Counted from the first letter of the stretch, positions 21,892 to 26,405 are shown. The stretch: 64,000 nt of DNA from a virus (IMGVR_UViG_3300000727_000007:1-64000), one strand, 5' to 3'. Notes: generated from the sequence alone by a model not told the origin. Numbers and translations: made by a program.

Positions 21892-21908
21892 ACCGAAACC
21901 TTTATATA
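21892..21908 (+). promoter_or_regulatory. archaeal BRE+TATA promoter of the tRNA array
   Basis: ACCGAAACC-TTTATATA about 40 nt upstream of the first array tRNA. Confidence 0.75.
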
Positions 21909-22512: not shown

Positions 22513-22539
22513 TTGTTCTTTAAAAAGAACCAAATCAAA

Positions 22540-22636
22540 TGGACGGTTTCGTTGAAATAACACGAAGGACTAAAAGCTGTGAGGGTGCACTAGTAGCAGT
22601 TAGTAGGAATGGGAGCGCGCAAATTCCGCCGTCCAC
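22540..22636 (+). ncRNA. non-canonical cloverleaf (tRNA-like) RNA
   Basis: tggacgg/ccgtcca closing stem and three arms, without canonical D-loop GG or TTCRA motifs. Confidence 0.55.
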
Positions 22637-22639
22637 CGA

Positions 22640-23128: not shown

Positions 23129-23293
23129 ATGCCAGATATAAATGTTTGTCCCAATTGTGGTTCAAAAGAAATTCAATATAAGAAATTAGAACAGAGAGAT
23201 AATTCTATTCCTTGCAGACCTGAAGTGTCTGAACAATTCTGCAGATGTTTTTCATGCCAATTCGTTTGGAATGGTAAAGTTTGTAATGACTAA
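23129..23293 (+). CDS. TFIIS/TFS-like zinc-ribbon protein (54 aa, not in ORF track)
   Basis: AGGAGATGG RBS; CPNCG...Y..L.QR......F.RC..C...W. Confidence 0.65.
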   Translation: MPDINVCPNCGSKEIQYKKLEQRDNSIPCRPEVSEQFCRCFSCQFVWNGKVCND

Positions 23294-23594: not shown

Positions 23595-23666
23595 GCTGAC
23601 GTAGTCTAGTGGTAAGGACGCTGGGTTTTCGACCCGGTAACCGGGGTTCAAATCCCCGCGCCAGCA
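23595..23666 (+). tRNA. tRNA-Glu(TTC)
   Basis: ctggg-ttTTCga-cccgg. Confidence 0.92.
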
Positions 23667-23668
23667 TT

Positions 23669-23740
23669 AGTTCCTTGGTGTAGTGGTAATCATGACGGAC
23701 TTTGGATCCGTTGACCTCGGTTCGACTCCGGGAGGAACTA
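23669..23740 (+). tRNA. tRNA-Gln(TTG)
   Basis: acgga-ctTTGga-tccgt; archaeal A1:U72. Confidence 0.93.
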
Positions 23741-23742
23741 TC

Positions 23743-23817
23743 AGCGACGTAGAACAGTATGGAGTGTTCGTTGGGCTCATGACCCAAAGGTCGCCAGTTC
23801 AAATCTGGTCGTCGCTA
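23743..23817 (+). tRNA. initiator tRNA-Met(CAT)
   Basis: A1:U72; GGG/CCC in the anticodon stem. Confidence 0.92.
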
Positions 23818-23980
23818 TTGGTTTAGAGACCAAACCCCGACTGACGAAAATAAATAAGTCTCTATCCCTTCGTCAGTTGTAAGCTGTACGTCCCCGGGCG
23901 GTGGCAGCGAAAAATGGGGGAGTTGGGAGTAAGTGATGGTACCAGAAGCTTACTCCCGGCAACGGGGAGATAATTCGTTT
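23818..23980 (+). ncRNA. unknown structured RNA with two potential pseudoknots
   Basis: GC-rich spacer with 10-12 bp hairpins and two loop-to-flank complementarities. Confidence 0.6.
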
Positions 23981-23981
23981 A

Positions 23982-24054
23982 GGGCGATTAGCTCAGTTGG
24001 GAGAGCACCCCGCTTGCAACGGGGAGGCCGTGGGTTCAAGTCCCACATTGTCCA
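23982..24054 (+). tRNA. tRNA-Ala(TGC)
   Basis: G3:U70; ccccg-ctTGCaa-cgggg. Confidence 0.94.
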
Positions 24055-24060
24055 TCATAT

Positions 24061-24135
24061 GGGCGCGTAGCTCAATTAGGCAGAGCGACCGACTCCAGAT
24101 CGGTAGGTTGCGGGTTCAATTCCCGCCGAGGCCCA
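24061..24135 (+). tRNA. tRNA-Trp(CCA), imperfect acceptor stem
   Basis: accga-ctCCAga-tcggt; one extra nucleotide in the 3' acceptor strand. Confidence 0.85.
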
Positions 24136-24142
24136 TTCATAT

Positions 24143-24217
24143 GGCATATATAGTGTTAACGGTTAGCACCCAACCCTGTGGAGGTTGAAGAGAGGGGTTC
24201 AATTCCCCCTATATGCC
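24143..24217 (+). tRNA. tRNA-His(GTG)
   Basis: Encoded G-1:C73; ctGTGga loop. Confidence 0.92.
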
Positions 24218-24222
24218 CTCAA

Positions 24223-24297
24223 GGGACTGTAGCTCAGTTGCGGGAGAGCGATCGGCTGAAGACCGATGTGCCATGGGTTCGACCCCCATCAGTCCCA
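24223..24297 (+). tRNA. tRNA-Phe(GAA)
   Basis: atcgg-ctGAAga-ccgat. Confidence 0.93.
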
Positions 24298-24305
24298 CTA
24301 TTTAG

Positions 24306-25088
24306 GTGATGAAAATGGATATGAAAGAAACAATAGTATTTGTAGGTAGATTAAAACAAGAAATACATGACAAAGAAGGGACTTTATTTAACGCCTATTT
24401 ATCAGGCTCTAAACTCTATGGATGGGATAGTTATAACTCCGATACAGATGTAAGAGGTATGTTTTCTCTGAATCCAAGGCGTTACTTAGGTTTAACTGTA
24501 CCAAAAGAAACCATACAACTACATCAAATAGGAGAAGAATATGACGTAGTTATGCATGAGTTAAGAAAGACAATAAACCTTGCATTAAAAGGGAACTGTA
24601 ACATACTTGAAGGTTTTAGCGCACCACAGATTTATAAAGACGCAAAATTCAAAGGGTTACAAAAACTTGTCCTCAATAGTTTTGGTAAAGATGGTTTATA
24701 CAACTCTTATAGAGGTATGGCTTGGCAGAATTATAAGAAATTTATCTTACAAGGAAGGAACACTGTTAAAAAATATCTGTACGTTTACAGAGGACTACTT
24801 GCAGGAAGGTATGTCTTAACCACTGGTAAGATAGAACCTAACATGGAAGTCCTCGCTAAGTATTTCCGCTGTGATAATGCGAAACATCTACTTAAAATAA
24901 AACGTGCAGGTTCTGAAAATGAACCTCTTAGCGAGTTAAAACAAGGAGATTTAGACTTAGAGATAAAAGAATTATTCGATAAAATCGATGATGCCTATGT
25001 TCTATCTGAATTACCAAGAAAACCAGAAGATGACGACGTAAAAGAAGTAGAAAACTATTTAATCAATTTAAGGTTAGAGGGCTTATAG
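24306..25088 (+). CDS. DNA-pol-beta-family nucleotidyltransferase (RlaP/YcgL-like, RNA-repair associated)
   Basis: SGSKLYG...SDTDVRG, HEL.K...LKGN.NILE, KKYLYVYR. Confidence 0.85.
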   Translation: MMKMDMKETIVFVGRLKQEIHDKEGTLFNAYLSGSKLYGWDSYNSDTDVRGMFSLNPRRYLGLTVPKETIQLHQIGEEYDVVMHELRKTINLALKGNCNILEGFSAPQIYKDAKFKGLQKLVLNSFGKDGLYNSYRGMAWQNYKKFILQGRNTVKKYLYVYRGLLAGRYVLTTGKIEPNMEVLAKYFRCDNAKHLLKIKRAGSENEPLSELKQGDLDLEIKELFDKIDDAYVLSELPRKPEDDDVKEVENYLINLRLEGL

Positions 25089-25152
25089 TATAATAGGATA
25101 GTGCTCCAGCCTTCGAAGCTGGCAAATGGGGGTTCGAGTCCCTCTAAGTCCT
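25079..25152 (+). tRNA. tRNA-Arg(TCG)
   Basis: ccagc-ctTCGaa-gctgg; overlaps the last codons of the upstream CDS. Confidence 0.9.
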
Positions 25153-25173
25153 TATTTTTTAATTTAATCGTAT

Positions 25174-25406: not shown

Positions 25407-25955
25407 ATTAAGCGATTATATTTGTTTGCGATCGTTTTAGTCGCATTACTGATTAGTCTGCCTTTATCTTCAGCTACTTCGGTAGGGGCGTATGACGTTA
25501 AAGTAACAAGTAGTTATGTATCCTCAATTGCAAAGTGCAGTTGTGGAATGGGAACGTACAGTTATCATAAAGCTACGTTCAAAAATTATTGTCCAAATTG
25601 CCATCGTTATGGCACTTTACATTATGAAGTGGGTCCAGCCTCATGGACTTCACCAGAAGGAATGTGGTATTGTTCCTGCTGTGACATGGATTTCTGTGCT
25701 CAGTGTGGAAAAAGCCACGACGGTAGAGGAGTATGGCTCGTAAGAACGACAATCCCTAAGCCATTACCAAAAGTTGTAGTAAACAACACCAATCAAACAA
25801 ACGTAACAAACGCAACAGCGAATACAACAGCTGTAAACAATTCAACTCCTCACGGAATAACTCATCCGTTTTTATCTCAAATGACACACGAGCAATTGGA
25901 TGCTTTGGGTGTGTTAGTTAAAAAATCTTGGATGGGCGAAAGATTTATATATTAG
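25407..25955 (+). CDS. secreted Cys-rich protein (probable ATT start at 25407)
   Basis: Signal peptide (KRLYLFAIVLVALLISLPLSSA), NYCPNC...EG.WYC..CD.DFC..CG domain, Asn/Thr linker. Confidence 0.75.
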   Translation: MKRLYLFAIVLVALLISLPLSSATSVGAYDVKVTSSYVSSIAKCSCGMGTYSYHKATFKNYCPNCHRYGTLHYEVGPASWTSPEGMWYCSCCDMDFCAQCGKSHDGRGVWLVRTTIPKPLPKVVVNNTNQTNVTNATANTTAVNNSTPHGITHPFLSQMTHEQLDALGVLVKKSWMGERFIY

Positions 25956-26110: not shown

Positions 26111-26114
26111 CTAG

Positions 26115-26188
26115 ATAAGGCTGCGATAGAGAAGAGATACTTCGACGCTTAACCGAAAACCCAAACTCTTCTCAATTGTTCTCCTTAT
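26115..26188 (+). ncRNA. candidate Y RNA 1 (minimal)
   Basis: ataagg/ccttat and gagaagag/ctcttctc stems; conserved GGCTGCGATAG...TACTTCG; upstream of Ro60. Confidence 0.7.
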
Positions 26189-26196
26189 AACACTCA

Positions 26197-26372
26197 TGGG
26201 CGGTGGCTGAATGGAAAAGCGCCAGAAGAAACAGTCTTATTGATTGTTCTTCTCGTTATCTATTTCACTCATATTATTGCCTCTTTGGTAACGAGACTGT
26301 GTAGATAAGACATACTTCGTTCAAGGAGCTGGTCGTCAAGAGACGTGTGGTGGTTCGAATCCACCCCGCCCA
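26197..26372 (+). ncRNA. tRNA-Leu-like scaffold with a permuted Y-RNA stem in place of the anticodon loop
   Basis: tgggcgg/ccgccca acceptor, D arm, cgtc/gacg variable arm, ggtgg-TTCGAAT-ccacc; about 100-nt insert carrying both halves of the repeat in swapped order. Confidence 0.75.
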
Positions 26373-26405
26373 ATTGACCGTTCAAGTTTCGGTCGGTTCA
26401 CATGG

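Follow-up and report, generated by a model that had tools for sequence, protein, structure and literature searches.

A strongly folding spacer between tRNA-Met and tRNA-Ala in the tRNA array of a virus with a probable archaeal host

The spacer and its place in the tRNA array

What kind of sequence separates the genes for tRNA-Met(CAT) and tRNA-Ala(TGC) in this viral tRNA array, and does it give rise to an RNA with a function of its own? The stretch of DNA analyzed here, referred to as the window (64,000 nucleotides), comes from an IMG/VR record of 91.9 kb, which is classified as a provirus, and makes up its first 64 kb. A first-pass annotation had singled out ~160 nt between an initiator tRNA-Met and tRNA-Ala as an unannotated RNA with two potential pseudoknots, possibly a new motif or ribozyme. 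We found this spacer to be present and 164 nt long (23818-23981, + strand, the strand of the tRNAs), and a direct check of the sequence located every string that had been quoted from it. The 5′ neighbor, tRNA-Met(CAT) (23743..23817, + strand, no encoded CCA), is of the initiator type as had been claimed, with an A1:U72 pair and GGG/CCC next to the anticodon loop that fit an archaeal-type initiator, and the 3′ neighbor is tRNA-Ala(TGC) (23982..24054, + strand). The spacer had also been described as GC-rich in an AT-rich genome and devoid of a credible ORF, and both descriptions hold: its GC content is 0.494, compared with 0.354 (35.4%) for the window, 0.24-0.30 in the unstructured spacers of the array and 54% in the tRNAs, and its only ORFs, of 29-47 aa, overlap tRNAs or are antisense. 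We conclude that the spacer is a non-coding, GC-enriched and strongly folding sequence on the tRNA strand and that its structure is real.

ARAGORN and Rfam together identified 25 tRNA genes between 20400 and 30041, all on the + strand and none (0/25) with an encoded CCA. A further gene, tRNA-Tyr(GTA) (29338-29511, + strand; Rfam 37.8 bits), carries a 102-nt A/T-rich intron at the canonical position 37/38; it was missed by the standard ARAGORN run, was detected when introns were allowed, and is the sole Tyr tRNA of the array, which brings the total to 26 tRNAs. Inside the array lies a co-oriented gene for an RlaP-type nucleotidyltransferase (24306-25088, + strand; PF10127, E 4e-37), which starts 325 nt downstream of the spacer. 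The Ro60/TROVE ORF (26700-28289, + strand), likewise located within the tRNA array, is 2.7 kb downstream of the spacer, and directly upstream of Ro60 is an array of Y RNAs (26113-26703), 2.2-2.9 kb downstream of the spacer. A pseudomurein-binding repeat (PMBR) protein and an anaerobic ribonucleotide reductase are encoded upstream of the tRNA array. Because of the intron-bearing tRNA-Tyr, the A1:U72 initiator-type tRNA-Met and the pseudomurein-binding repeat, we infer that the host is archaeal, and it is probably a methanogen with pseudomurein.

TATA-like boxes occur at 21901, 23399 (37 nt upstream of tRNA-Asp), 24630, 25944 and 26653, and a strict scan of 23595-24630 found none in or just upstream of the spacer. 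Between 23595 and 25155 there is also no run of at least five T. With neither signal present, tRNA-Ala, tRNA-Trp, tRNA-His and tRNA-Phe would be reached only by read-through of the spacer. During pre-tRNA processing, tRNase Z cuts after the discriminator base and RNase P cuts at position +1. Lacking its own promoter and terminator, the spacer is very probably transcribed with the tRNAs, within a polycistronic tRNA precursor; tRNase Z, cutting after A23817, would then define the 5′ end and RNase P, cutting before G23982, the 3′ end of a 164-nt RNA (23818-23981). Release of the spacer by these two enzymes appears reasonable.

Predicted fold and comparison with known RNA families

The whole spacer has an MFE of −57.8 kcal/mol, which corresponds to a z score of −2.9 relative to dinucleotide shuffles. 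For the − strand the value is −46.7 kcal/mol; the advantage of 11 kcal/mol for the + strand arises because several of the pairs are G-U. The fold signal sits in two hairpins, hp1 and hp3, with z scores far beyond those of shuffles. Hp1 (23839..23878, + strand) has a 10-bp stem, made of nine Watson-Crick pairs and a basal G-U, and a 20-nt A/U-rich loop; the pairing proposed for it, gactgacgaa (23839-48) with ttcgtcagtt (23869-78), is confirmed with z −4.4 and pair probabilities >0.9. The strongest element of the spacer is hp3 (23922..23960, + strand), with a 13-bp stem that includes three G-U pairs and, above it, an internal loop (GA/GAA) and a short tip (UGG/CCA). It corresponds to a 12-bp hairpin, gttgggagtaag/cttactcccggc (23922-33/23950-61), that had been noted earlier and is borne out (z −5.8, probabilities 0.98-1.0). 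At the 5′ end, the small hairpin hpA (23818..23833, + strand) pairs UUGGUU with GACCAA around a UAGA loop, with probabilities of 0.84-1.0 for the inner five pairs and 0.72 for the terminal pair, and the MFE fold also shows a weak 3′ hairpin.

Two further helices proposed by the first-pass annotation stood only in part. Hp2 (23883..23908, + strand) combines GCUGU/GCAGC with an inner CGUC/GGCG and contains UCCCCG; its gctgt and gcagc strings are in place (23883-87/23904-08), but they fold no better than shuffles (z −0.95). The strings of the cccc/gggg closing helix are likewise there, but the helix itself is ambiguous: CCCC at 23835-38 pairs with GGGG at 23916-19 with a probability of 0.45, which gives a three-way junction, and with GGGG at 23964-67 with a probability of 0.29, which gives a four-way junction 1.6 kcal/mol above the MFE.

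The two pseudoknots gained no support. The complementary arms exist, GUCUCUA in the hp1 loop (gtctcta, 23858-64) facing tagagac (23824-30) and tccccg within hp2 (23891-96) facing cgggga (23963-68), and the two pairings have duplex energies of −7.9 and −10.1 kcal/mol. However, once hp1 and hp3 are masked, such complements are at chance level. The remaining 118 nt contain one 7-mer and one further 6-mer complement, and when these 118 nt are shuffled, 22% of the shuffles have one 7-mer or more and 31% have two 6-mers or more. The first pairing would also compete with the well-predicted hpA (23818-33). Because of this competition with the 5′ hairpin and the chance-level complements, the predicted pseudoknots are possible but would carry no evidential weight.

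The first-pass annotation had also suggested that the spacer may be a new motif or ribozyme. The spacer is compact, GC-rich and multi-helical, offers two possible loop-to-distal pairings, and contains CUGACGA and GAAA strings. Its likeness to small self-cleaving ribozymes (hammerhead, twister, HDV-like) is limited to size and multi-helix appearance, and it lacks a conserved core. The Rfam cmscan that had been recommended was run and gave no family match in the spacer: Rfam 15 at the gathering score over the window had no match there, a scan of 3.6 kb around the spacer at E≤10 returned tRNAs and noise outside it, a scan of the array likewise gave nothing but tRNAs and noise, and the spacer alone at E≤10 returned only a chance miRNA hairpin on the minus strand. 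None of the hammerhead, twister, twister-sister, HDV-like, pistol, hatchet and hairpin ribozyme models matched, either at the gathering score or at E≤10, in agreement with the earlier view that the spacer does not cleanly fit the hammerhead, twister or HDV consensus. The hammerhead-like CUGACGA...GAAA strings were rejected as such, with the required stem II absent and no model match. Self-cleavage would not be needed, because the tRNA-processing enzymes already supply the ends. Together with the lack of homologs and the absence of the spacer from the orthologous junction of its relatives (described below), these results leave a new ribozyme or catalytic motif built on a double pseudoknot barely credible.

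We also considered whether the spacer holds a tRNA that had escaped detection. ARAGORN found no tRNA cloverleaf (T arm, 7-nt anticodon loop, acceptor stem) in 23818-23981, either in the standard run or in a run over 23700-24100 with introns allowed and a relaxed threshold; an array-wide run with introns allowed did recover the intron-bearing tRNA-Tyr. RF00005 had no match in the spacer in the E≤10 scans. An intron-containing or split tRNA was rejected, there being no T arm anywhere in the spacer. A K-turn or C/D box at the hp3 tip (GUGAUGG...CAGA) was rejected on inspection: in neither orientation is there a 3-nt bulge with tandem G-A pairs, and no D box follows downstream.

Relatives of the locus, the direct repeat and the likeness to tRNA-Ala

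The best reachable relatives of this locus are two contigs, L002 from a JGI metagenome and L003 from Logan, in which RlaP is 59% identical. Both keep the gene order (PMBR protein, tRNA array, RlaP, two tRNA-Arg, Y RNA array, Ro60) and, within it, the tRNA order Asp-Lys-Glu-Gln-Met-Ala-Trp-His-Phe followed by RlaP-Arg-Arg-Ro60. In both, the gap between tRNA-Met and tRNA-Ala is 3 nt (TTA) and the 164-nt element is absent; it therefore does not belong to the conserved island. Polarity is not proven by two lineages, and the difference may reflect gain here or loss in L002/L003.

A covariance model, R1, was built from the spacer and its MFE structure and applied to about 775 kb of related or pattern-matched DNA in total. 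In the window and seven related loci (171 kb) it recovered only the spacer, it found nothing new in 81 loci around RlaP homologs (409 kb) or in the exact-pattern loci (111 and 74 kb) and nothing in four whole viral records, and on its own 91.9-kb record it matched the spacer itself with no second copy. Exact-pattern scans of IMG/VR with the hp3 stem, the hp1 stem with a variable loop, the hp3 tip and the hp2 region gave either zero or isolated chance matches that did not extend. Searches of a phage collection with megablast and blastn matched only the tRNA-Ala part and not the spacer. Among protein searches, RlaP and NrdD had no relatives in IMG/VR, Ro60 had six loci in IMG/VR at ≤53% identity, none with the element, and bacterial matches only in GTDB genomes (≤38%), and an RlaP alignment search in metagenomes yielded about 80 loci, with the element in none. 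These homolog searches covered relatives beyond the closest kin, six contigs encoding an identical RlaP that were left out. The expectation of conserved pairing in homologs thus came out negative by default, there being no homolog in the accessible relatives and collections searched, and for the same reason no covariation analysis was possible. With no covarying homologs in the relatives and collections covered, the spacer would not qualify as a new conserved structured RNA family.

What could have placed this sequence between two tRNA genes that are nearly adjacent in the relatives? A repeat search revealed a 10-nt direct repeat, 9/10 identical and with a spacing of 156, exactly at both tRNA borders. 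Copy 1, ATTGGTTTAG (23817..23826, + strand), starts with the discriminator base of tRNA-Met, and copy 2, ATTCGTTTAG (23973..23982, + strand), ends with G1 of tRNA-Ala. By our own estimate, the chance of a 9/10 match at both borders is ~6e-5 per placement. Removing one copy of the repeat together with the 146 nt between the copies (156 nt) leaves a Met-Ala spacer of 8 nt, a length comparable with the 3 nt found in L002.

A repeat placed exactly at the borders, like a target-site duplication, would be expected if the spacer were a feature of the DNA rather than of an RNA, namely a trace left by a small palindromic mobile element or by illegitimate recombination or duplication, with RNA folding incidental. 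The two strong features, hp1 and hp3, are inverted repeats, and the element occurs in one lineage only (versus L002/L003), both as this explanation predicts. However, no terminal inverted repeats adjoin the direct repeats, the element is single-copy in the 91.9-kb record and was not found in other viral contigs, and the G-U pairs and the 11 kcal/mol advantage of the + strand RNA favor folding as RNA. A variant possibly assigns the hp1 loop the role of an internal promoter-like element. This loop, AAATAAATAA (AAAATAAATAAG), is the only A/T-rich stretch of the spacer and loosely resembles an archaeal TATA box, but the strict TATA scan was negative in the spacer; an internal start signal in the loop is conceivable. 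We regard a DNA-level origin of this kind as unlikely. An insertion derived specifically from a MITE or IS was rejected: the direct repeat is present, but no terminal inverted repeats adjoin it, and the element is single-copy in its own record, with no copies in the other viral contigs and loci searched.

The sequence between the repeats provides a further indication of origin. A segment of the spacer (23921..23969, + strand) is colinear with tRNA-Ala positions 14-45 and reads AGTTGGGAG, an insert, C(T)CCCG and GCAACGGGGAG; the exact 9- and 11-mers AGTTGGGAG and GCAACGGGGAG occur once each in the spacer and in tRNA-Ala, in identical order. A gapped local alignment of spacer positions 104-152 with tRNA-Ala 14-45 has a z of 5.5, was equaled by 0/3000 dinucleotide shuffles, and runs from the D loop through the 5′ strand of the anticodon stem and the 3′ part of the anticodon loop to the 3′ strand of that stem. 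Among the 25 tRNAs, tRNA-Ala gives the best alignment to the spacer. The similarity is good, not overwhelming, because its long-gap score is also reached by about 5 of 4262 window tiles (~0.1%, p=1e-3 per comparison). As a search for a pseudo-tRNA, the comparison thus found colinear tRNA similarity beyond chance in the 3′ third of the spacer only. Missing from the tRNA-Ala-like copy are the T arm, the 3′ strand of the acceptor stem and three bases of the anticodon loop. The copy contains a palindromic insert (UAAG...CUUA) of 17-20 nt, which appears to turn the partial complementarity between the D loop and anticodon stem of tRNA-Ala into the perfect stem of hp3. The 3′ third can accordingly be read as a truncated, rearranged tRNA-Ala-like copy. 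Two other similarities, spacer 49-103 with tRNA-Arg(TCG) (z 3.3, 3/300) and spacer 78-162 with a tRNA-shaped Y RNA at 26197-26372 (z 3.3, 1/500), are not significant after multiple testing and serve only as hints of a possible tRNA origin for a larger part of the spacer.

Degenerate tRNA copies do occur in such arrays, as indicated by a 97-nt structured spacer in the tRNA-His/tRNA-Phe gap of L002 (5970-6066). ARAGORN makes no call there, and the sequence aligns colinearly with the contig's own tRNA-Leu(TAA) (z 6.7), including TAAGA of the anticodon loop and a T-loop-like stretch, TTCCAATCCCC. It shares with our spacer the character of a GC-enriched, folded part of the array that is missed by tRNA finders and colinear with a tRNA of the same array. 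The two differ in that the L002 copy retains a likeness to a whole cloverleaf, with its T-loop-like sequence, whereas our spacer represents only the D-loop-to-anticodon-arm part of tRNA-Ala, has a palindromic insert, and begins with ~100 nt upstream that have no recognizable source.

Based on these results, we favor, with moderate confidence, a lineage-specific and partly tRNA-Ala-derived insertion that is excised as a structured by-product. The insertion would have entered the very short tRNA-Met/tRNA-Ala gap of an archaeal virus or provirus with a 26-tRNA array. It would be a mosaic in which the 3′ third is a truncated, rearranged tRNA-Ala copy (D loop and anticodon arm) whose palindromic insert creates hp3, the 5′ part (hpA, hp1, hp2) has no recognizable source, and the 10-nt direct repeat brackets the whole, as expected from a duplication or insertion event. 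Once released from the tRNA precursor, the RNA may persist for a while by virtue of its two long hairpins, and the spacer itself would most likely lack any conserved function. Directly seen are the helices, the repeats, the similarity to tRNA-Ala, the absence of the element from the relatives and the lack of a family match. What counts against the insertion is that plain pseudogene decay does not yield perfect stems of 10 and 13 bp, nor a GC content of 49% where the genome has 35%; the insertion would have to be recent, or else selection maintains the structure.

Comparison with phage T4 RNAs and Y RNAs

An alternative is that the spacer encodes a small RNA that is stable and has a function in the viral tRNA operon, excised by tRNA-processing enzymes in the manner of the species 1 and 2 RNAs of phage T4. 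In T4, rnaC and rnaD are annotated as the small stable species 1 and 2 RNAs in the tRNA cluster, 139 and 119 nt long, and rnaC folds with z −4.6, has a T arm (GGUUCGAAUCC) and a closing stem, and is visibly tRNA-derived. Both RNAs are processed from a tRNA precursor, and we know of no function assigned to them. The spacer resembles them in location, size, strand and partial tRNA ancestry, lying within a tRNA cluster, in the orientation of the tRNAs, and having neither a promoter nor a terminator to itself. The T4 RNAs, in contrast, stand at the end of the cluster, rnaC keeps its T arm, and both are annotated as stable, whereas the spacer lies between two tRNAs, has no T arm, is known from sequence and is absent from its own relatives. 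R1 applied to the T4 locus gave noise only, with no similarity to rnaC or rnaD.

Other observations bear on such a function. The fold clearly exceeds chance and is more stable on the strand of the tRNAs, GC is enriched as in tRNAs, and the spacer sits in a co-oriented island of tRNA supply and RNA repair with RlaP and Ro60, where the RNA could act, for example, as a partial tRNA-Ala mimic or decoy or by pairing with Y RNA. Two of the four Y RNAs have, in their conserved 5′ motif, the sequence GAUAGAGA, to which the hp1 loop (UCUCUAUC) is complementary. This complementarity appears weak and would be a lead only, as the 8-mer GATAGAGA occurs 7 times in the window versus 2.4 expected. The main evidence against a functional RNA is that the spacer is missing from the nearest relatives despite their keeping the whole island, and that no homolog, hence no covariation, exists in the accessible DNA. 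Taken together, we consider a functional stable RNA possible but doubtful.

Could the spacer instead be a fifth, divergent Y RNA, a partner of the virus-encoded Ro60? Y RNAs (YrlA/Yrn, RF02553) are structured small RNAs that derive from tRNAs and can be transcribed together with them (Chen et al. 2014, PMC4201824). The spacer is likewise a structured stretch with partial tRNA derivation and possible tRNA co-transcription, less than 4 kb from Ro60 and on the same strand. In addition, the 5′ strand of hp1 contains GACGAA (23843-48), which fits GNCGAA of the bacterial Rsr-binding motif GNCGAAN0-1G (PMC4201824); the spacer continues with AA and not with the final G, and by our calculation the six-letter GNCGAA is expected ~0.15 times in 164 nt. 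In the window, the conserved 5′ motif of the Y RNAs (GGYTGCGWAGAKAAG..TACTTCG) has four copies and the conserved 3′ motif (..TCGC..TTCTCC..) three, all at 26113-26703; the 5′ motif has six further copies in L002 (8034-8880) and five in the IMG/VR contig L004 (5252-5960).

Profile HMMs were built for both motifs from the window, L002 and L004, the 5′ motif being represented by 15 copies and the 3′ motif by 16 instances selected by regex. At maximal sensitivity (E 1e5, filters off), neither aligned to the spacer, and their matches in the window were confined to 26113-26703 (four 5′, three 3′). A by-eye likeness of the 5′ end and hp1 loop of the spacer to the two Y RNA stem strands found no support in this profile search. 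Rfam YrlA (RF02553) had no match in the spacer and only weak matches at tRNA-tRNA junctions, which are a known artefact (PMC4201824), and it also did not detect the Y RNA array itself. The terminal stem of Y RNAs, in which the 5′ and 3′ ends pair, is absent from the MFE structure and the ensemble of the spacer, whose ends fold locally into hpA and the weak 3′ hairpin. The spacer therefore differs from Y RNAs in general and from the viral array at 26113-26703 in the conserved stem motifs, the long terminal stem, the T arm and the RF02553 match, and we find it very improbable that it is a Y RNA. By the available tests, the spacer would be neither a member of a known family nor a ribozyme, nor one of the virus's Y RNAs. 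Some Y RNAs of the window have tRNA-like T arms (GGTTCGAATCC at 26354 and GGTTCAACTCC at 26474).

A more specific proposal is that a virus-specific functional stable RNA, assembled from tRNA-Ala pieces and released by tRNA processing, acts in the island of tRNA supply, Ro60 and Y RNAs. We think this improbable. If true, the RNA could divert a host tRNA-targeting factor as a partial tRNA-Ala mimic; alternatively, the hp1 loop could pair with the Y RNA motif and modulate Ro60 loading. The spacer would matter more if its RNA were stable and functional, and an archaeal virus with 26 tRNAs, RlaP, Ro60 and a Y RNA array would be a good setting in which to study the roles of such RNAs. If instead it is an insertion derived in part from tRNA-Ala, the spacer alone is of little weight beyond the point that a strikingly folded, GC-rich gap in an array need not be a conserved RNA gene; rearranged pieces of tRNAs build up in viral tRNA arrays and escape both tRNA finders and Rfam, the tRNA-Leu-like copy of L002 being an example. 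The remarkable part of the locus is the surrounding island. Among the six viral contigs with a Ro60 relative in IMG/VR, four (L004-L007) carry tRNA arrays of 10 to 27 tRNAs at most 10 kb away, so that Ro60 next to a tRNA array is a gene combination that recurs among viruses.

Several other features of the array were observed. A second GC-enriched (45%) non-tRNA spacer occupies the tRNA-Thr(GGT)/tRNA-Met gap (22513-22639); it has no tRNA or Rfam match and no significant similarity to the tRNAs of the array or to the 164-nt spacer, and its 7-bp closing stem (tggacgg/ccgtcca) encloses three hairpins. The last codons of the RlaP gene overlap the start of tRNA-Arg(TCG) (25078-25153), and RlaP homologs at 50-59% identity come mostly from metagenome contigs, the few that carry a name being labelled Nanoarchaeota, Aenigmarchaeota, Bathyarchaeota and Dojkabacteria. 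An ORF of 177 aa (25422-25955) lies in the interval from tRNA-Arg(TCT) to the Y RNA array; it has no Pfam match, several CxxC pairs and an Asn/Thr-rich low-complexity tail. A 54-codon ORF between two tRNA-Ser genes (23129-23293) has a good ribosome-binding site (aaggag) and four CxxC-type cysteine pairs (zinc ribbon), and small ORFs are found at comparable positions in the L002 array.
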